Position numbers and translations under genes: made by a program. A DNA stretch of 61,141 nt from Actinomycetota bacterium (GTDB lineage Bacteria; Actinomycetota; Actinomycetes; Nanopelagicales; Nanopelagicaceae). The DNA lies in NCBI GenBank assembly GCA_005786885.1, contig SYCR01000039.1, positions 1-61,141 on the forward strand, given 5' to 3'. Under the pieces are notes generated by a model, which saw nothing but the letters and a program-made list of their open reading frames with translations, was not told the origin of the DNA and made no database searches. Positions 3 to 22,401 of this stretch are shown here, piece by piece. The first letter of the stretch is position 1, and each line of letters opens with the position of its first letter.

Positions 3-575
3 GTGGATCTAGATGCTGCTTTTGGTATTGGAAGTAATGCCGAGATTCTTGCTGAAGTAGTTGGCGCGCTAGATGTCAAAGTGGAACTCTCTGGTGGAAT
101 TCGAGACAACGAATCTCTTGAGCGCGCGTTAGCCACCGGATGCGCTCGAATCAATCTAGGAACTGCGGCATTAGAAAATCCTGATTGGACCGCACAAGTT
201 ATTGCTAAGCATGGAGAAAAAATTGCTGTAGGACTAGATGTTCGTGGCCACACTTTGGCTGCGCGTGGTTGGACTACTGAAGGCGGAAATCTTTTTGAAA
301 CGATTGAGAGATTAGACCGTGATGGATGCGCACGTTATGTATTAACAGATGTCGCAAAAGATGGAACTTTGATGGGTCCAAATATTAATTTATTAAAAGA
401 AGTTGCCGCAGCAACCAATCGTCCAATTATTGCAAGCGGTGGAGTTTCATCATTAGGTGATCTGGAATCACTTCGAGAGTTAACTGCAATGGGAGTCGAA
501 GGTGCAATTGTTGGGAAAGCTCTTTATGCGGGTGCATTTACTTTAAGTGAAGCGTTAGCGAAAGTAAGTAAATAG
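3..575 (+). CDS. hisA: HisA/PriA-type phosphoribosyl isomerase (ProFAR isomerase; 5' end cut by window edge)
   Basis: The ORF is open to the window edge. It carries (beta-alpha)8 HisA motifs [18 protein letters not shown] and VGKALYAG. Its stop overlaps the hisF GTG. No trpF is present in the neighbouring trp cluster, as in PriA-using Actinobacteria. Confidence 0.85.
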
Positions 576-15286: not shown

Positions 15287-16726
15287 ATGCGTCGAGCCAA
15301 AATTGTTTGTACTTTAGGTCCGGCCACTGATGACGCGGTAATGATCGATCGGATGATCTCTGCCGGCATGAACATGGCGCGATTGAATCTTTCGCATGGG
15401 GCGCGCGAAGGTCATGAAAAAACCTTTGAAATGGTGCGCCAAGCCGCAGTAAAAGCGGATGTATCGGTTGCAATTGTTGTGGATCTGCAAGGACCAAAGA
15501 TTAGATTAGGTAAATTCAAAAATGGTTCTCATGAAATTATCAAAGGTGCAAAGTTCACAATCACAACTGAAGTAATTGAAGGCGATGAAAATATCTCCTC
15601 TACAACATATATGGGTTTGTCAGGGGATTGCAAAGTTGGCGATCGGATATTGATTGATGATGGACGAGTAGCCTTAGAAGTAACTTCCGTTAAAGCGCCA
15701 AGAATAGAAACTATTGTTATAGAAGGCGGAACCGTAAGTAACAGTAAAGGCTTGAATTTGCCAGGGGCTGCAGTATCCGTGCCGGCACTTTCAGAAAAAG
15801 ATGAAGAAGATCTGAAATGGGCAATTGGGATGGGTGCAGATTTCATTGCACTCTCATTTGTTCGCGATGCAGCGGACATAAAGCGAGTGCATCAGATTAT
15901 GGATTCTGCCGGAGTGCGAATTCCAGTCATTGCAAAAATTGAAAAGCCACAAGCAGTTGCAAATTTAGAAGAGATAGTTGCCGCATTTGATGCAATCATG
16001 GTAGCTCGTGGTGATTTGGGAGTAGAACTCCTAATGGAGGAAGTTCCATTAGTTCAGAAACGTTGCATTACTCTTGCCCGAGAAAATGCAAAACCTGTAA
16101 TTGTTGCAACTCAAATGCTTGATTCAATGATGTCAAATTCTCGTCCAACACGTGCTGAAGTAAATGATTGCGCTAATGCGGTACTAGATGGCGCAGATGC
16201 TTTAATGCTTTCAGGGGAGACAAGTGTTGGAAAATTTCCAATTGAAACCATTGAGACGATGGCAAGAATCATTGCTAAAACTGAGAAAGAAGCTTTGGAT
16301 ACCGTTGCACCACTTCGACATAATCCACATACAACCGCTGGGGCAATCACTAAAGCGGCTACTGAAGTTGGTGAAGTTGTTGGAGCAAAATTCCTAGTCG
16401 CTTTTACTCAGAGTGGGGATTCGGCAAGAAGAATGTCGCGGTTACGTTCTGCAATCCCTATGTTGGCCTTAACCCCAGATGTGCGTACATCGCGAGTTCT
16501 GGCACTTAGTTGGGGAGTCGAATCGATCGTGATCCCGCCTGCTAGTCATACCGATGAAATGGTTAAGCAGATTGATAGCAAATTAATTGAGAGCAAGAGA
16601 GCAAATATTGGTGATTTCATATTAATTGTGGCTGGAAGTCCTCCTGGAATACCTGGATCAACTAATGCAATGCGAGTACACCGTGTTGGAGATGCCGTTG
16701 CGGGCGTTGTTCCTGCTTATCGCTGA
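15287..16726 (+). CDS. pyk: pyruvate kinase
   Basis: 479 aa with motifs MRRAKIVCTLGP, MNMARLNLSHG and MVARGDLGVE. Confidence 0.95.
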   Translation: MRRAKIVCTLGPATDDAVMIDRMISAGMNMARLNLSHGAREGHEKTFEMVRQAAVKADVSVAIVVDLQGPKIRLGKFKNGSHEIIKGAKFTITTEVIEGDENISSTTYMGLSGDCKVGDRILIDDGRVALEVTSVKAPRIETIVIEGGTVSNSKGLNLPGAAVSVPALSEKDEEDLKWAIGMGADFIALSFVRDAADIKRVHQIMDSAGVRIPVIAKIEKPQAVANLEEIVAAFDAIMVARGDLGVELLMEEVPLVQKRCITLARENAKPVIVATQMLDSMMSNSRPTRAEVNDCANAVLDGADALMLSGETSVGKFPIETIETMARIIAKTEKEALDTVAPLRHNPHTTAGAITKAATEVGEVVGAKFLVAFTQSGDSARRMSRLRSAIPMLALTPDVRTSRVLALSWGVESIVIPPASHTDEMVKQIDSKLIESKRANIGDFILIVAGSPPGIPGSTNAMRVHRVGDAVAGVVPAYR

Positions 16727-16778
16727 GATTAAGTTCTAGTCTTAGAGGTATAAACGATGAAGTTGTTTGGGGGGCCAA

Positions 16779-18398
16779 ATGAGAATTAGCATGAAAATCG
16801 TTTATGCGGCTTTGCTCTCGTTTAGCATCGTTGGCTCCGCTGTTGGAGGAAGTATTCCCGCACACTCTTCAACCTCTTCACTGCCGTCTAGTTGGCCAAA
16901 AGTTCCTTCAATCGGATTCTCATCCAGCGATGACAGTTTGCTAGAAACTAAGTCATACGTGACAGGGTTTTCGTACGCAGAAGGTGCCACTAGTGGCATT
17001 TACTCTCGCACTGTTACCTGCTCAACTGTTGATGATGTTGCTTGTGCTGGTGCTGATTCACTTTTCGCGCAAATGATCCTTTTGCCTTGCTCTTCCACTG
17101 TCACTGAAATGTGTATTGAATCTCTTGAGGTCTCAGATTCAAAAGGTGCTTTGAGAAAAGCAACAATTGGCTATGAATCAGCAGGAGAAAGGTTTCCAGC
17201 TAGCAAAATTCGAAATACCCCTGCCGGGGGAAGTGCAAGTGTGTGGCATGTGAAAGAATCACCTAACGCTTCAGGCTCAGATGAGTACGCAGTAAGTGTT
17301 AGTACAACTTTTCAAAATTACCAGAACAAAGGGTGTACTCAATACATCACCTCTCCATGTGGTTTCACTCGAGGCTTCAGGGCGAGGGTCTATCCAATCA
17401 ACCGCACTTCTAGTATCGAAGCGAACCAGAACTGTCTTTGGAGAGAAGAACAAAAGTGCGTGAAGAAAGTTGATTTTTCTCCTGGTTCGCGTGCAGCCCT
17501 TACGGTCCGAATCGATAATTCACTAACTGGTTTTCTCTTTGGCCGGATGAAAAATGTGACATTGGATTTGACTTCAAGAACACCCACTTCAAATCTTCTT
17601 AGAGTTGAGGCAGATCCGATTGATGTTCCTAAAATTTATGCGTATGTAGCGAAAAGTGATTTAAGTAAATACCCCAAAATCGAGGAGTACTGGAAAACTC
17701 GTCGGCAACAGTTAGCCGCATCTGATTTCACCAGCAACGAGACAATAGATACGGGGCCGGCTCCAGAATGGGCCATGACTGATTTTCAAGCTTTTGATGA
17801 TCTGGTCAAGTCAGGCCCTTTGGTTACTTCAATCTGGAGATTTGGCACGCAAGCCGGAAATGGAACTGGCAGTAAATGTTTTGATGATAAAACCAAACTT
17901 CATGGTTTAGTCACCACAAATGCCCCTACCTATCTTCCCAATCCTCCCTCATTTGAAAATGGTGAACTCGCTTACAAAGTAGCAGGGGCGCATCACTTAG
18001 AAGATGGTGTTACCTTATTTAAAGGATCCTATGATTTAGTTCTCCGGACTGAATTCGCCCGTTGTCTATATGGGTTTTCAAATGCTCCGATTAGCGCAAA
18101 AATTTCCGTTGTTTCTACAAATGGTTCCACGCAAGATATTGCGAGCGAGTCACTGCGAGAAGATGCGGCTCGTCAATGGCTATATCTCAGTGCAAAAAAC
18201 TTCACCTTCTCTGCGCCGACTATTAAAGTTAAATTAATGCAAGATAAACCGATAGTTCCAGCAAAAGAAGAAGCAGCCAAAGCGCCAGGTACCACAGTCG
18301 CCAAAAAAGTAAGCACAATTACCTGCGTTAAAGGCAAGATCACCAAGAAGTATTCCGGAGCAAAACCTAAATGCCCTAGTGGGTTCAAGAAAAAGTAA
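16779..18398 (+). CDS. secreted cysteine-rich protein of unknown function
   Basis: Long ORF with a signal-peptide-like N-terminus (MKIVYAALLSFSIVGSAVGG), 12 Cys by my count, and a basic C-terminal tail ITCVKGKITKKYSGAKPKCPSGFKKK. I recognise no family. The start could be the ATG at 16779 or at 16791; the track's 16767 is a TTG. Confidence 0.6.
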   Translation: MRISMKIVYAALLSFSIVGSAVGGSIPAHSSTSSLPSSWPKVPSIGFSSSDDSLLETKSYVTGFSYAEGATSGIYSRTVTCSTVDDVACAGADSLFAQMILLPCSSTVTEMCIESLEVSDSKGALRKATIGYESAGERFPASKIRNTPAGGSASVWHVKESPNASGSDEYAVSVSTTFQNYQNKGCTQYITSPCGFTRGFRARVYPINRTSSIEANQNCLWREEQKCVKKVDFSPGSRAALTVRIDNSLTGFLFGRMKNVTLDLTSRTPTSNLLRVEADPIDVPKIYAYVAKSDLSKYPKIEEYWKTRRQQLAASDFTSNETIDTGPAPEWAMTDFQAFDDLVKSGPLVTSIWRFGTQAGNGTGSKCFDDKTKLHGLVTTNAPTYLPNPPSFENGELAYKVAGAHHLEDGVTLFKGSYDLVLRTEFARCLYGFSNAPISAKISVVSTNGSTQDIASESLREDAARQWLYLSAKNFTFSAPTIKVKLMQDKPIVPAKEEAAKAPGTTVAKKVSTITCVKGKITKKYSGAKPKCPSGFKKK

Positions 18399-18439
18399 GA
18401 ACTTCTGCGCTTTTCTGAATACTTTGGCACAATTCGACC

Positions 18440-19156
18440 ATGTCATTGGTAATTGTCACTGGGGGATCTCGCGGACTGGGCTTTGAAACAGCTAAGGCGT
18501 TACGAGCCCAAGGGCACCAAATTGTTTTGGTTGCTAAAGATAAAGAGCAATTAGCGGAAGTTGCTGCCCAATTAGATTGTGAATATCGAGCAGTCGACTT
18601 AGCCGATTTAGAGGCTGCCAAGAAAACCTTCGAAGAGATATTGGCAAGTTTCGGCACACCAGAAATTTTAATTTTGGCTCATGGAGTAATGAGCGCAAAG
18701 ATGTCTAAGACCTTAAAGACAGATAATGAAGAGTGGCGTCGAGTCATGGCCATTAATCTAGATTCGGTATTTTGTGCTGTAAATACTTTGGCTGCACCAA
18801 TGGCTGAAGCACGAAATGGAAGAGTCATTATTTTCTCTGCTTGTTTAGGTCGAATGTCCGGGCCAGGCAATGCTGGCGGGTTAGCGCCTTACCGAATCAG
18901 CAAAGCAGGAGTAAATGCATTAGTCCGCAACTTGGCACATGAGACTGGCTTAGGTAGTAGGGGAGTTTTAGTTGATGCCATATGTCCGAACCATTCACGG
19001 ACCGACATGGGTGGACCAGGAGCTCTGCTATCTGCCGAAGAGGGTGCCCGCACTGCGATCTGGTTGGCTACGCGAAACTTTGATCTAAATGGATCAACTG
19101 ATCAAGAGAAATTAACTGGAGTGCTTTGGGAAGAGATGAATGTGATTCCATGGTAA
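18440..19156 (+). CDS. SDR-family oxidoreductase
   Basis: 238 aa with a TGGSRGLG cofactor motif and a Y..SK catalytic motif (YRISKAG). Confidence 0.85.
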   Translation: MSLVIVTGGSRGLGFETAKALRAQGHQIVLVAKDKEQLAEVAAQLDCEYRAVDLADLEAAKKTFEEILASFGTPEILILAHGVMSAKMSKTLKTDNEEWRRVMAINLDSVFCAVNTLAAPMAEARNGRVIIFSACLGRMSGPGNAGGLAPYRISKAGVNALVRNLAHETGLGSRGVLVDAICPNHSRTDMGGPGALLSAEEGARTAIWLATRNFDLNGSTDQEKLTGVLWEEMNVIPW

Positions 19157-19169
19157 TTGCAAGTTTTCT

Positions 19170-20642
19170 TTAAATTGTTCCTGCCTCTAATCCTTCAAGA
19201 ACATCCATTGCGCGTTCTTTTAATTCAGGGAGATCTGAAAGCCGATTTAGGCCAAATATCTGTTGACTCATACGGTGATTCTTCACAAATGCTTCTTTGT
19301 GTCGATCCAGAAAATCCCAATACAAAGTTGTGAAAGGGCAGGCCTTTTCACCTACACGTAATTTGGGATCATAAACACAGGGCTTGCAATAGTTAGACAT
19401 TCGTGAAATGTATGCACCACCTGCCGCATATGGCTTTGTCATCATGGTGCCACCATCGGCATGAACGCCCATGCCAATTACATTTGGAACCATTACCCAT
19501 TCAGAGGCATCAATAAAGACCTCACGCATCCACTCCAAAAATTCTTGCGGATTTGTACCGGTAATCAGAGCAAGATTCGAAAGTAACATTAGCCGCGGAA
19601 TATGGTGAACCCATGCGCGATCATCTATGTCAGTTACGGTTTGTTTGATGCAATTCATTTGGGTTTTTTTAGGGTCGTTAAATAAAGGAAGTAATTTCCT
19701 GGCGGCATTTAATTGGTTATTTTCACGGTAATCAGGGCCTAGGAACCAATACATTCCGTTTACGTATTCACGCCAACCGATAACTTGCCGAATAAAACCT
19801 TCGGCAGATTCGATTGGTATCGAACCCTTGTTAAATGCTTGCACAGCCGCTCTGATTACTTCACTTGGGTGTAGTAGTCCGTTGTTTAAGTATGGGGATA
19901 ACAGTGAATGATGAAGTGCCCAGTTATCAGTGGTCATCGCATCTTCAAGCGGGCCAAATTCAGCGAAGTGATTATCAATAAAGTTCTTTAATTGGGCGAG
20001 TGCACCTTTGCGAGTAGTGGCCCAAGTGTTTGTGGGTTCATGAGAAAGCTCAATCGCTACTTGATTATCAATCTCATCTCTCTGATGCTCGAGATATTTC
20101 GGTCCTTCATATTTTTTCGGGGGTGGCAAACGGTTCTCTTTATCGAAGTTCCATGAACCACCGACAGGATCACTGCCCTCCATCAATATATTTAAACGTG
20201 TTCTTTGTTTCCGATAGAAACTTTCCATTAAATAACTTTTTTGATCTTGAGCCCATGAGTGAAATAAGGGCCTAGGAGTCAGAAAGAAATCGTTTTCTAC
20301 AAAAAGAACACCATGAGTTTTGAGTGCTTCAAATTGTCGAAAGGATGAAGGCTCCGCACAGATGATCGAAAGTTTTGGGTATTTCTTTTGAACAATTTTG
20401 AGACCAGATACCGTGGTCGCGGCTTTTACATATTCAACTGTAAACCCTTCATCCTCAAGAGATTTTGCAAAGTGACGGGCGCTAGAGATTAAAAAGAAGA
20501 GTCGTTCTTTGTGCCAATTTCGCCCAGTAGTCATGCGGGCACTTTCGACCAAGACAATCAAATCTTCTTTTGGGTCAGCCTCCTTAAGTGCACCAAATTT
20601 ACGATGTAGGTGATCGAAGGGAATATAGATAATTCTCTTCAT
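19170..20642 (-). CDS. cryptochrome/photolyase-family protein of the Fe-S bacterial (FeS-BCP, CryB/PhrB, COG3046) class, likely a (6-4) photolyase
   Basis: 490 aa with a COG3046-like N-terminus (IPFDHL..., WHKERLFF). It has four Cys arranged C...CxxC-x12-C (NCIKQ, YCKPCVYD, EKACPF), which matches the [4Fe-4S] ligands of PhrB/CryB as I recall them. Confidence 0.85.
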   Translation of the reverse strand: MKRIIYIPFDHLHRKFGALKEADPKEDLIVLVESARMTTGRNWHKERLFFLISSARHFAKSLEDEGFTVEYVKAATTVSGLKIVQKKYPKLSIICAEPSSFRQFEALKTHGVLFVENDFFLTPRPLFHSWAQDQKSYLMESFYRKQRTRLNILMEGSDPVGGSWNFDKENRLPPPKKYEGPKYLEHQRDEIDNQVAIELSHEPTNTWATTRKGALAQLKNFIDNHFAEFGPLEDAMTTDNWALHHSLLSPYLNNGLLHPSEVIRAAVQAFNKGSIPIESAEGFIRQVIGWREYVNGMYWFLGPDYRENNQLNAARKLLPLFNDPKKTQMNCIKQTVTDIDDRAWVHHIPRLMLLSNLALITGTNPQEFLEWMREVFIDASEWVMVPNVIGMGVHADGGTMMTKPYAAGGAYISRMSNYCKPCVYDPKLRVGEKACPFTTLYWDFLDRHKEAFVKNHRMSQQIFGLNRLSDLPELKERAMDVLEGLEAGTI

Positions 20643-20782
20643 TTATTTTCCCGACAACGATTGCTGCAATACTTCACTTCATCCCAGTTCTTGGCCCATT
20701 TTTTGCGCCATTCAAATTTAAGATTGCAACGCACGCAGGTTTTTGGTGGAAACCCATTCTTATCCTTTGCGATTCGTGCCAT
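20639..20782 (-). CDS. DUF2256-like zinc-ribbon protein (47 aa), absent from the ORF track
   Basis: Hand translation of the minus strand gives MARIAKDKNGFPPKTCVRCNLKFEWRKKWAKNWDEVKYCSNRCRENK*. The CxxC...CxxxC pattern and the FEWRKKW..WD.VKYCS..CR core match DUF2256 as I recall it. Its TGA overlaps the photolyase ATG (ATGA). Confidence 0.75.
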   Translation of the reverse strand: MARIAKDKNGFPPKTCVRCNLKFEWRKKWAKNWDEVKYCSNRCRENK

Positions 20783-20844
20783 GATCAAATAATAGTCTTG
20801 AGTAATTAATAATGCAGAAGGAAGGCAGTATTAAATTCTAGGAT

Positions 20845-21621
20845 TTAAGGCAGTGGAATCAAGGTATTGGCAAAAATCTGCCAAGCAAGCGCTGATTTCG
20901 CAATTAATGAGAGCGTTATATAAGTGCGTTCTCCACGCAAGTAATTACTCCACTTGCCTACTTTTTTGTATTGCACCCATTGCACTAAAGCAAAAGAGTT
21001 GAAGAATACAAAAATGGTGAAGACAATTCCATAGACAAATGCTGGGGCTGAAGTATCACTAACACCGCCAATTGAAAGCACATAAAACGCAAGTGCTATC
21101 CAAGGAACAATTCCAGTTATGCAACCAAAAATAAATGGCAACCATCCACCATTTCCTGGTGTCTCATATTTTTCTTGCAACCAGCCAAACAAAATCATCG
21201 AAGCATTTACGCCGAAGATTGAGATTAGTGCAGTTACATCTGCGATGCCAGTCACTTGAGCGATCAACACGATCATCACCGAAGAGCTGATTGAGTATTC
21301 AACCCATCTGAAATAATTTCGTTGAGCTGACAATCCTGCGCTGTAGCGAGGAAAAAATTGTGGGCTAGCCACAATAAAATGGAAGAGCGCAGAAAGTCCT
21401 AAAAAGAGCGCAACGGCTAATCCGATCGGCGTGCTAAAAAGAATTACTGATGGAGCAAATGAGGAACCTGGGGGACCGGCCATGTAAGTGGCAGTTACTG
21501 GCAATGCAAAATCACTGCTTAATGCCAAGACTGCGACCATCTGCAGTAAGTGCAAAATTCCAGCAAAGATATTTACTTTGCGAAGTCGGGCCATAGTCAG
21601 GTCAGTTAGGTCTTTGCTCAT
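20845..21621 (-). CDS. heliorhodopsin
   Basis: 258 aa and 7 TM. Long stretches match the prototype actinobacterial heliorhodopsin as I recall it: HLLQM.AVLAL, GPPG, GLAVALFLGLSALFHFIV, FRWVEYS.SSSVMIVLIAQ (counterion Glu), NASMILFGWLQEKY, FNSFALVQ, KWSNYLRGER, and SL.AKSALAWQIF (Schiff-base Lys). Confidence 0.93.
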   Translation of the reverse strand: MSKDLTDLTMARLRKVNIFAGILHLLQMVAVLALSSDFALPVTATYMAGPPGSSFAPSVILFSTPIGLAVALFLGLSALFHFIVASPQFFPRYSAGLSAQRNYFRWVEYSISSSVMIVLIAQVTGIADVTALISIFGVNASMILFGWLQEKYETPGNGGWLPFIFGCITGIVPWIALAFYVLSIGGVSDTSAPAFVYGIVFTIFVFFNSFALVQWVQYKKVGKWSNYLRGERTYITLSLIAKSALAWQIFANTLIPLP

Positions 21622-21672
21622 AAATTAAAAATACCTCAGATCTCAAGGTAAATTGATAAATCCGTCGTTACG

Positions 21673-21745
21673 TGCCTCGAGTCGGATTTGAACCGACACT
21701 ATGCAGTGTTTGAGACTGCCCTCTCTACCGTTGGAGTACCGAGGC
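21673..21745 (-). tRNA. 73-nt tRNA with anticodon CAA (Leu by anticodon) in my manual fold, but class I with a 5-nt variable loop
   Basis: Minus-strand read: GCCTCGG-TA-CTCC-AACGGTAG-AGAG-G-GCAGT-CTCAAAC-ACTGC-ATAGT-GTCGG-TTCAAAT-CCGAC-TCGAGGC-A. The acceptor stem is 7 bp with one G-U. The T-loop is canonical, with U33 and A37 in place and an A73 discriminator. CCA is not encoded. Confidence 0.75.
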
Positions 21746-21795: not shown

Positions 21796-22401
21796 GTGGC
21801 AAATTCACCCAATACCGATCAGGTGGCTCCAAGAATTATCGTCGCTGAAGATGAGGCGATCATTCGGATGGACCTAATTGAGATGTTGCGCGAGGCTGGA
21901 TATAACGTCATTGGTGAGGCCGTAAATGGTCGCGAGGCGATCTCATTAGCCCGACATTTAAAACCAGATTTGGCGATTTTGGATGTGAAAATGCCTGAGG
22001 TCGATGGCATTTCAGCGGCCGAAGTAATCGTCAGTGAGAAATTGGCGGCGGTATTGATGCTTACCGCCTTTAGCCAGCGAGAGTTAGTTGAGCGGGCCCG
22101 AGATGCTGGGGCAATGGCATACCTAGTTAAGCCATTTTCGATTAGCGATCTGACTCCAGCCATTGAGATGGCCCTGGGCAGATACGCCCAGATTCAGGCC
22201 CTGGAGGCCGAGGTGGGCGAGCTTGGGGAGAGATTGGAAGCCCGAAAGTTGGTGGATCGGGCCAAAGGAGTTTTGATGGCCAATTTGGGGATCAGCGAGC
22301 CAGAGGCATTTAAATGGATCCAAAAGGCCGCAATGGATCAGCGCACCTCAATGAGCGTGGTGAGCGAAGGCGTCCTGGCTCATTATCAGTCGGAGAGTTG
22401 A
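21796..22401 (+). CDS. pdtaR: ANTAR-domain response regulator (PdtaR-like)
   Basis: 201 aa with a GTG start. The receiver domain (IIVAEDEAIIRMDL, DLAILDVKMP) and ANTAR domain (RKLVDRAKGVLM..., AFKWIQKAAMDQR) are near-collinear with mycobacterial PdtaR as I recall it. Confidence 0.9.
   Translation: MANSPNTDQVAPRIIVAEDEAIIRMDLIEMLREAGYNVIGEAVNGREAISLARHLKPDLAILDVKMPEVDGISAAEVIVSEKLAAVLMLTAFSQRELVERARDAGAMAYLVKPFSISDLTPAIEMALGRYAQIQALEAEVGELGERLEARKLVDRAKGVLMANLGISEPEAFKWIQKAAMDQRTSMSVVSEGVLAHYQSES

Follow-up and report, generated by a model that had tools for sequence, protein, structure and literature searches.

The window, by which we mean the entire 61,141-nucleotide stretch of DNA that was analysed, indicates a genome GC content of approximately 44%. 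Its local gene order starts with gltB, gltD, and the pyruvate kinase gene pyk (15287..16726, plus strand; Pfam PK and PK_C), continues with a four-gene block and a tRNA gene on the minus strand, and reaches a pdtaR-like response regulator that is divergent from the tRNA (21796..22401, plus strand) and has receiver and ANTAR domains (Pfam Response_reg and ANTAR). Beyond pdtaR lie livK, a methyltransferase gene, livFGMH, a gene for a 4HBT thioesterase-fold protein, and polA. We treated pyk and pdtaR as the upstream and downstream anchors of the locus. The four-gene block (16767..21621, annotated with Pfam) is a lineage-specific insert between pyk and the tRNA, and encodes a 543-aa protein of unknown function, a short-chain dehydrogenase, a photolyase-related DPRP protein, and a heliorhodopsin (20845-21621, minus strand). 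The 61-kb window does not contain leuS, and neither an integrase nor a compositional anomaly was found around the tRNA.

The tRNA gene occupies positions 21673..21745 of the minus strand and reads GCCUCGGUACUCCAACGGUAGAGAGGGCAGUCUCAAACACUGCAUAGUGUCGGUUCAAAUCCGACUCGAGGCA, which amounts to 73 nt up to the discriminator A73. ARAGORN, Rfam, and the cloverleaf fold identify it as a type I tRNA-Leu(CAA) gene, i.e., one with a short variable loop. ARAGORN called tRNA-Leu(caa) on the minus strand at 21672-21745, the one extra 3' base being C74, and this was the sole tRNA that it called in the 61-kb window. The match to Rfam RF00005 scored 54.1 bits against a gathering score of 29 (E = 7e-9), ran from position 21745 to 21673, and spanned model positions 1-71 of 71, which places the gene in the tRNA family. 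Nothing else across the 61-kb window reached the Rfam thresholds. The minimum free energy fold was a cloverleaf at -24.9 kcal/mol (z = -2.57), and 1 of 200 shuffled sequences folded as well. Detection of this tRNA is far beyond chance.

The acceptor stem, GCCUCGG/UCGAGGC, has 7 bp including a G7-U66 wobble, and is followed by U8 and A9. The D arm consists of a 3-bp stem (CUC/GAG) with a C13/A22 mismatch and the loop AACGGUAG, and the anticodon arm of the stem GCAGU/ACUGC and the loop CU-CAA-AC. The variable loop is AUAGU, only 5 nt, and leads into the T arm GUCGG-UUCAAAU-CCGAC; positions 15 and 48 are A15 and U48. In the gene, A73 is followed by C and then by G and U, and therefore the CCA end is not encoded and would have to be added after trimming. 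The original prediction had reached this fold by hand. ARAGORN and Rfam confirmed all of its elements for 21673-21745, including the CAA anticodon, the 5-nt loop, A15/U48, A73, and the missing CCA, and the register of the hand fold agrees with both the ARAGORN drawing and the Rfam alignment. The covariance-model score is also not that of the low-scoring pseudogene that had been raised as a possible outcome of this check.

Two other readings of the same letters were rejected. On the reverse strand the gene would have a UUG (Gln) anticodon, but the T-loop consensus and the Rfam match exist on the minus strand only. Bacterial initiator tRNAs are marked by a C1/A72 mismatch and by a run of three G-C pairs at the base of the anticodon stem. 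The window tRNA has neither feature, which argues against an initiator-like tRNA serving UUG starts. A simple scan found no sigma-70-type promoter upstream of the tRNA, such a scan being uninformative for Actinobacteria.

A leucine anticodon on a short-armed tRNA has a published precedent. Streptomyces coelicolor has five leucine isoacceptors, four of type II, and its tRNALeu(CAA) is type I with the 5-nt variable loop A44-C45-A46-G47-C48 (Fan et al. 2019, NAR 47:6369, PMC6614811). A single LeuRS charges both types, with kcat/Km of 6.25 s-1 uM-1 for the CAA isoacceptor and 14.2 for UAA. Charging of tRNALeu(CAA) needs the U8:A14 pair and the five-nucleotide loop including residue 48; C74 matters as well, and A73 and the elbow contacts matter little. 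The leucine-specific domain of the S. coelicolor enzyme, ScoLeuRS (residues 696-733, L732/G733), confers charging of the type I tRNA, which E. coli LeuRS cannot charge and human mitochondrial LeuRS can (PMC6614811). Knock-out attempts were unsuccessful, the type I tRNA is missing from some species of Streptomyces, and UUG is a minor codon in S. coelicolor, with 6706 occurrences genome-wide (PMC6614811). The type I tRNA, presented as rare, was characterised in one Streptomyces species using transcripts made in vitro and tRNA obtained by overexpression in E. coli ('data not shown') (PMC6614811).

The window tRNA has in common with the S. coelicolor tRNA the CAA anticodon, a variable loop of exactly five nucleotides, the U8:A14 pair, G18G19, the U54:A58 T loop, and A73, and both occur alongside the standard code, in which UUG means leucine. 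Residue 48 is present and can pair with 15. The loop itself differs, being ACAGC with G15-C48 in S. coelicolor and AUAGU with A15-U48 in the window, such that the pair covaries. We found ACAGC with G15-C48 in four Streptomyces loci of our own collection described below (L027, L030, L039, and L056), and our match to the S. coelicolor tRNA is made through this published loop, the genus, and synteny rather than through the full sequence. The hosts differ too: the window belongs to a low-GC (~44%) freshwater actinobacterium resembling Nanopelagicales, in which UUG is a major codon, whereas UUG is minor in S. coelicolor.

To place the gene in context, we searched species-representative genomes with the PdtaR protein, which gave 80 actinobacterial loci, and called tRNAs in them with ARAGORN. 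A tRNA(CAA) lay beside pdtaR in 75 of the 80. The five exceptions were Saccharothrix, Lentzea, Umezawaea, Actinosynnema, and one locus with almost no upstream sequence. In 44 loci, L008, L013, L019, L044, and L048 among them, tblastn placed pyk directly upstream of the tRNA. The presence of pyk on the other side of the tRNA means that pyk-[tRNA(CAA)]-pdtaR is the ancestral arrangement, within a conserved locus order of gltB-gltD-pyk-[tRNA]-pdtaR-liv-polA.

Two sharply different types of tRNA(CAA) occupy this slot. The short type (58 loci) is 73-76 nt long, with a 4-5-nt variable loop, the acceptor stem GCCYNNG, and U8-A9; its 3-bp D stem is closed by C12-G23 and has an invariant C13/A22. The long type (17 loci) is a canonical class II tRNA-Leu of 83-84 nt, beginning GCCGGGUUGGCGGAAUGGCAGACGC and having a variable stem of 4-5 bp. 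The Mycobacterium group had 15 short and no long copies, Nocardioides and Marmoricola 6 and none, and the Nanopelagicaceae-like genomes 3 and none. Streptomyces was divided between 17 short and 12 long, which agrees with the published absence of the type I tRNA from some species. Nocardia had only the long type (3 loci), as did unclassified, metagenome-assembled Nocardioidaceae (2 loci). The short type was further found in Amycolatopsis, Saccharomonospora, Actinokineospora, a Pseudonocardiaceae genome, and Sphaerisporangium. With respect to pdtaR, the tRNA has the reverse orientation in all three Nanopelagicaceae-like loci, and the window tRNA has the one seen in other Actinobacteria.

The window tRNA is identical at 71 of 73 positions to those of two Nanopelagicaceae genomes, and the same 73 nt recur without change in an independent metagenome contig (L082). 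Identity is 72-81% to most Streptomyces short-type copies and 58-63% to the long type. The short-armed tRNA-Leu(CAA) is neither a one-off nor a decaying gene, and the singular oddity that had been suspected here is in fact spread across the phylum, and Fan et al. (2019) had reported it before. The window gene lies in the slot common to the 17 Streptomyces short-type loci and has the positions that are invariant in the family. Judged by position and family signature, it is an orthologue of the biochemically characterised Streptomyces tRNA. According to a paper on M. tuberculosis MenT3, long loops are confined to tRNALeu-2, -3, and -5 among the leucine tRNAs, which fits short-armed leucine tRNAs in mycobacteria; our literature searches returned this indirect remark only, and no description of the phylum-wide distribution of short-armed tRNA-Leu.

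We asked whether the neighbouring heliorhodopsin gene gives the tRNA a role beyond translation. The two genes share a strand, with 51 nt separating the 3' end of the tRNA (21673) from the heliorhodopsin ATG (21621) downstream of it, and the spacer between them (21622..21672, minus strand) has no terminator-like hairpin by a promoter and terminator scan, so read-through into heliorhodopsin is possible. One could imagine that the tRNA, in addition to translation or in place of it, takes part in the regulation or processing of the heliorhodopsin-photolyase genes downstream, for example as a 5' tRNA that is transcribed together with them and provides a promoter and a site for RNase processing. A search of metagenomes with the heliorhodopsin protein gave 80 loci, and the tRNA was upstream of heliorhodopsin in one of them, namely the closest relative, L082 (93% identity, 52-nt gap), where the arrangement is kept. 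It was absent upstream in the other 79 (73-89% identity), of which approximately 71 had at least 200 nt of upstream sequence. Conversely, in the 80 pdtaR loci tblastn detected homologues of neither heliorhodopsin nor DPRP. With the adjacency limited to L082 and absent from the pdtaR loci, 16767-21621 is therefore a recent insertion beside a pre-existing tRNA.

The regulatory reading is at odds with this distribution, since the tRNA is kept at its slot whatever lies downstream, and also with the spacer, which has its own -10-like hexamer TACCTT (TANNNT) and a Shine-Dalgarno-like GAGG. We consider it quite improbable. The original prediction was correct that the two genes lie about 50 nt apart on one strand, but a functional link between them, like the regulatory or non-translational role that it listed, is not borne out by an adjacency confined to the nearest relative. 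Any read-through from the tRNA into heliorhodopsin would be incidental to the identity of the tRNA. We also considered a genomic island integrated at the tRNA 3' end. This was unsupported: there was no second copy of the last 20 nt, even allowing 3 mismatches, and no meaningful att-like repeat flanked the block at 16767-21621.

Short-armed leucine tRNAs also occur in viruses. We scanned viral contigs for short-armed tRNAs having a CAA anticodon and the variable-loop and T-arm motif of the family, and at least 120 contigs matched. Among the matches listed, ARAGORN called a tRNA-Leu(caa) of 73-75 nt in 118 of 120 contigs, although frequencies in this set are biased by the choice of contigs for their short CAA tRNA. 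The contigs ranged from 23 to 70% GC, and many of the matching tRNAs lay within tRNA arrays of up to 38 genes. The matches listed also had short tRNAs with the other leucine anticodons (UAA 26, UAG 34, GAG 15, CAG 5, and AAG 2), and their serine and tyrosine tRNAs remained long-armed (65 long and 1 short for Ser; 31 long and 1 short for Tyr).

A D-arm signature, U8-A9-NN-C12-C13-A14-R15..GG..AG(N)AG, of which the upstream part was not imposed by the search pattern, was present in 106 of 119 short CAA tRNAs and 54 of 83 short tRNAs with other leucine anticodons, again among the matches listed, but in none of 49 long-armed leucine tRNAs and none of 841 other short tRNAs. The coherence of short-armed leucine tRNAs as a family in viral contigs is clear despite the selection bias. 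BLAST of the window tRNA against cultured phages gave 3 weak matches only, and consensus-like queries found more. Annotated cases in cultured phages include a tRNA-Leu(UAG) of E. coli Felixounavirus (77 nt including CCA), with further examples in cyanophage P-RSM6, Bacillus phage Deep Blue, and mycobacteriophage Koguma. In mycobacteriophages, the 3' part of the Mycobacterium homologue is additionally present as an att-like copy. Literature searches on short-armed tRNA-Leu in phages found nothing.

The tRNAs of these phage arrays (Felixounavirus, Bixzunavirus, P-RSM6, Deep Blue, and IMG/VR contigs) resemble the window family in the D-arm signature, a 4-5-nt variable loop ending AGY, and, mostly, A73. 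They differ in being phage-borne, in covering all six leucine anticodons, and in having hosts that include Proteobacteria, Firmicutes, and Cyanobacteria. These occurrences suggest that type I tRNA-Leu is much more widespread than the single published case implies.

Could the window gene then be a horizontally acquired phage tRNA rather than a vertically inherited core gene? The abundance of the D-arm signature in viral contigs and cultured phages, the att-like copy in mycobacteriophages, and the alternation of short and long types at one site within Streptomyces all point in this direction. Nevertheless, the gene holds the same syntenic slot across several actinobacterial orders, and no integrase, duplicated tRNA 3' end, or compositional anomaly is found nearby. 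We give acquisition of this kind little credence. Ancient exchange with phages is possible, but it bears on the origin of the gene and not on its present function.

If the tRNA were charged with an amino acid other than leucine, or charged ambiguously, it would recode UUG. We counted codons in 38 open reading frames of the window (16,831 codons), where UUG occurred 395 times (23.5 per 1000) and was the second most common leucine codon. We then aligned window proteins by tblastn with homologues in the fetched loci. UUG faced leucine in 63.8% of 2780 aligned cells, a higher share than for any of the other five leucine codons (52-58%). UUG is therefore read as leucine.

A short arm on a tRNA with a leucine anticodon does conflict with the textbook class II rule, and E. 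coli LeuRS does not charge the Streptomyces homologue (PMC6614811), both of which would favour charging with something else. Yet an abundant codon facing leucine more often than any other leucine codon leaves little room for this reading, and the Streptomyces member of the family is leucylated by its cognate LeuRS (PMC6614811). The D arm is also leucine-like, as had been proposed from its features: its AA..GG.AGA motif is common to the canonical long-armed tRNA-Leu at the same site, and A73 is kept in all 37 short-type sequences aligned below. Recoding, one of the roles originally put forward, is very unlikely.

We aligned 37 distinct short-type sequences, comprising the window tRNA and 36 others, and scored them against the cloverleaf. 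Paired cells made up 97.7%; the figure for shuffles was 79.9%, and sliding the 3' partners left no more than 50.5%. Compensatory double changes occurred in 14 of 20 pairs (112 cells), and none of 500 shuffles attained the covariation score of 0.486 (versus 0.152). The tertiary Levitt pair 15-48 was A-U in 31 sequences and G-C in 6, and was never broken. Invariant positions were G1 C2 C3, U8, A9, C12, C13, A14, A22, and G23 in the 5' part, and U33, C34 A35 A36, A37, A46, G47, and A73 further on. This pairing and covariation across 37 sequences indicate a functional tRNA under purifying selection for structure, and not a pseudogene. The compensatory changes and the retention of the locus in relatives were what the original prediction had proposed to look for in orthologous loci.

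The long-armed tRNA-Leu(CAA) found at the same slot in Nocardia and in some Streptomyces and Nocardioidaceae shares with the window tRNA the anticodon, A73, A14, A15-U48, the D-loop motif, and a 3-bp D stem with a 13/22 mismatch and a purine at 22. The variable region of the long type is 13-15 nt including a stem of 4-5 bp, whereas the window tRNA has 5 nt and no stem, and thus lacks the arm of more than 10 nt with a stem that defines class II. The long and short types differ elsewhere as well, having, respectively, G and A at position 9, G-C and C-G at pair 12-23, G and C at position 13, and GCCGGGU and GCCYCGG in the acceptor stem. Because position 9, pair 12-23, position 13, and acceptor pairs 4-7 differ, the short type is a separate lineage and not a deletion derivative, which removes the idea of a tRNA-Leu that simply lost its arm.

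A decaying pseudogene of a canonical tRNA-Leu(CAA), to which the missing long arm, the unencoded CCA, the G-U wobble, and the C/A stem mismatch might have pointed, is effectively refuted by the conservation of the gene across actinobacterial orders with compensatory changes, together with its high Rfam score, the identical copy in L082, the separate ancestry of the short type, and the invariance of C13/A22, which makes this mismatch a family feature rather than damage.

Taken together, we conclude with approximately 90% probability that the window gene is a functional tRNA-Leu(CAA), a leucine isoacceptor that reads UUG and has the actinobacterial type I form. This conclusion draws on synteny and covariation, on the leucine that UUG faces in homologues, and on the leucylation published for the Streptomyces counterpart, and it coincides with the first of the four options of the original prediction, that of a functional minimalist leucine tRNA. 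The tRNA family to which the gene belongs is unusual but known in Actinobacteria, and the gene is an ordinary representative of it.

As a functional tRNA-Leu(CAA), the gene would be transcribed from the pyk-pdtaR intergenic region, and its transcript would probably be trimmed at both ends and receive its CCA post-transcriptionally. By homology with S. coelicolor, the organism's single LeuRS would then charge it with leucine, with no need of a long arm. The enzyme would presumably rely on U8:A14, on C74, and on a variable loop that contains residue 48 and is exactly five nucleotides long, and would be assisted by its leucine-specific domain. The charged tRNA would decode UUG as leucine in ordinary translation, a meaning of the codon that the alignments bear out, and it may be the main or only reader of UUG. 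Its position beside heliorhodopsin would be a by-product of a gene cassette inserted next to a conserved tRNA gene.

The type I tRNALeu(UUR) of animal mitochondria belongs to another compartment and has a dedicated LeuRS. The human mitochondrial tRNA, unlike the Streptomyces type I tRNA, is not charged by ScoLeuRS (PMC6614811), so the identity sets differ. A human short-armed gene with a CAA anticodon is a recent anticodon mutant of tRNA-Met that has a methionine body and is poorly expressed; it arose within primates, A36 being found only in human, chimp, and gorilla. The window tRNA, in contrast, has a leucine-like body and ancient conservation with compensatory changes.

A broader and much more tentative reading would unite the bacterial and viral observations. 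Under it, one short-armed tRNA-Leu lineage would be common to Actinobacteria and to phages of many phyla, it would have been swapped repeatedly with the long-armed tRNA-Leu(CAA) at one chromosomal site, and it may have been retained either because the lack of an arm shields it from nucleases or toxins specific for class II tRNAs or because phages require a leucine tRNA able to evade host defences of this sort. We regard this reading as unlikely. If true, the window copy would demonstrate, at low GC and high usage, that a major codon can be served by an armless tRNA-Leu.

For the window itself, identification of a functional tRNA-Leu(CAA) changes little: the gene is most probably the organism's normal UUG decoder, with no recoding involved. 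Neither annotation pipelines nor readers should treat genes of this kind as aberrant. For the family, the conserved slot extends to Mycobacterium, Nocardioides, the sampled Pseudonocardiaceae genera, Streptosporangiales, and freshwater Nanopelagicales, and a type I tRNALeu(CAA) would serve a frequent codon in a genome of 44% GC. A family of tRNAs with the same D-arm signature is widespread in phage arrays, including those of E. coli phages; the LeuRS of E. coli reportedly cannot charge the Streptomyces tRNA. This makes both the co-evolution of LeuRS with tRNALeu and the function of phage tRNAs directly testable.

Among the 80 actinobacterial loci retrieved with the PdtaR protein of the window (L002-L081), the site between pyk and pdtaR was occupied by either a short-type tRNA-Leu(CAA), with a 4-5-nt variable loop, or a canonical long-type one, and the type varied inside single genera and families. 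The tRNA preceded the pdtaR match by ~100-300 nt. Streptomyces carried 17 short and 12 long types at this same site, and Nocardioidaceae had 6 short types against 2 long. The long type alone was present in Nocardia (3 loci), and the short type alone in Mycobacterium (15 loci). This alternation at one site implies that the tRNA-Leu(CAA) was repeatedly replaced in place. No tRNA was found within 4 kb in the loci from Saccharothrix, Lentzea, Umezawaea, and Actinosynnema.

In three Nanopelagicaceae-like genomes, the same tRNA as in the window (67-71 of 73 nt identical) was inverted, facing pdtaR rather than away from it (L008, 3881-3954; L048, 3855-3928; L059, 757-830). The inverted gene fitted within the ~140-250 nt separating pyk from pdtaR; one tRNA gene alone has thus been inverted locally.

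The window carries a four-gene block between pyk and the tRNA (16767-21621), encoding a 543-aa protein with a signal-peptide-like N terminus and no Pfam match, a short-chain dehydrogenase, a DPRP photolyase-related protein, and heliorhodopsin. Pairing of heliorhodopsin with photolyase is a known association. The block was found in none of the 80 related pdtaR loci, and neither an integrase nor an att-like repeat was found.

A few of the metagenome loci retrieved with the heliorhodopsin protein had a tRNA gene downstream of heliorhodopsin on the opposite (minus) strand. The distance was ~60-100 nt in L091 (3823-3896), L122 (3861-3934), and L127 (1675-1748, identical to L122), and ~1.2 kb in L089 (4921-4994). 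Rfam scores were 44-54 bits for those of L089, L091, and L122. ARAGORN called the anticodons of these four genes as Val-GAC, Ser-CGA, and Ala-UGC, but in at least two genes the anticodon arm pairs poorly, and there the calls seem unreliable.

Aligning 37 distinct short-type sequences, that of the window included, revealed a conserved A/C mismatch at the last pair of the anticodon stem, 31-39 (alignment columns 34 and 42), in 17 of them. Its carriers were Mycobacterium, Amycolatopsis, and many Streptomyces; the pair was Watson-Crick in the remainder, including the window tRNA.

Short-armed tRNAs (73-79 nt) covering all six Leu anticodons were common in phage tRNA arrays, among the listed viral contigs (L162-L281, from IMG/VR) and phage records (KP869113.1, 30578-30654; HQ634193.1, 38809-38882; KU577463.1, 140503-140575; MF919513.1, 29217-29292). 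Ser and Tyr tRNAs in the listed viral contigs kept their long arm. The phage short-armed Leu tRNAs share the D-arm signature U8-A9-NN-C12-C13-A14-R15..GG..AG(N)AG with actinobacterial type I tRNALeu. Among matches listed for the same viral contigs, which were selected by a scan for short-armed CAA tRNAs that biases the counts, the signature occurred in 0 of 49 long Leu tRNAs and 0 of 841 other short tRNAs. Hosts of these phages include E. coli, and the Streptomyces type I tRNA is reportedly not chargeable by E. coli LeuRS (Fan et al. 2019, PMC6614811). Our literature search found no description of short-armed phage Leu tRNAs.

Querying with a Mycobacterium-like short-type tRNALeu(CAA) consensus, we found a 43-44-nt stretch 97.7% identical to its positions 31-74 in the ~110-kb mycobacteriophages Dallas, Wanda, Bobby, Ariel, and Hannaconda (MN062701.1, 53305-53348; KF006818.1, 53412-53455; NC_028876.2, 51435-51477; and relatives). 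The stretch sits in non-tRNA sequence and looks like an attP core aimed at that Mycobacterium-like short-type tRNALeu(CAA) gene.
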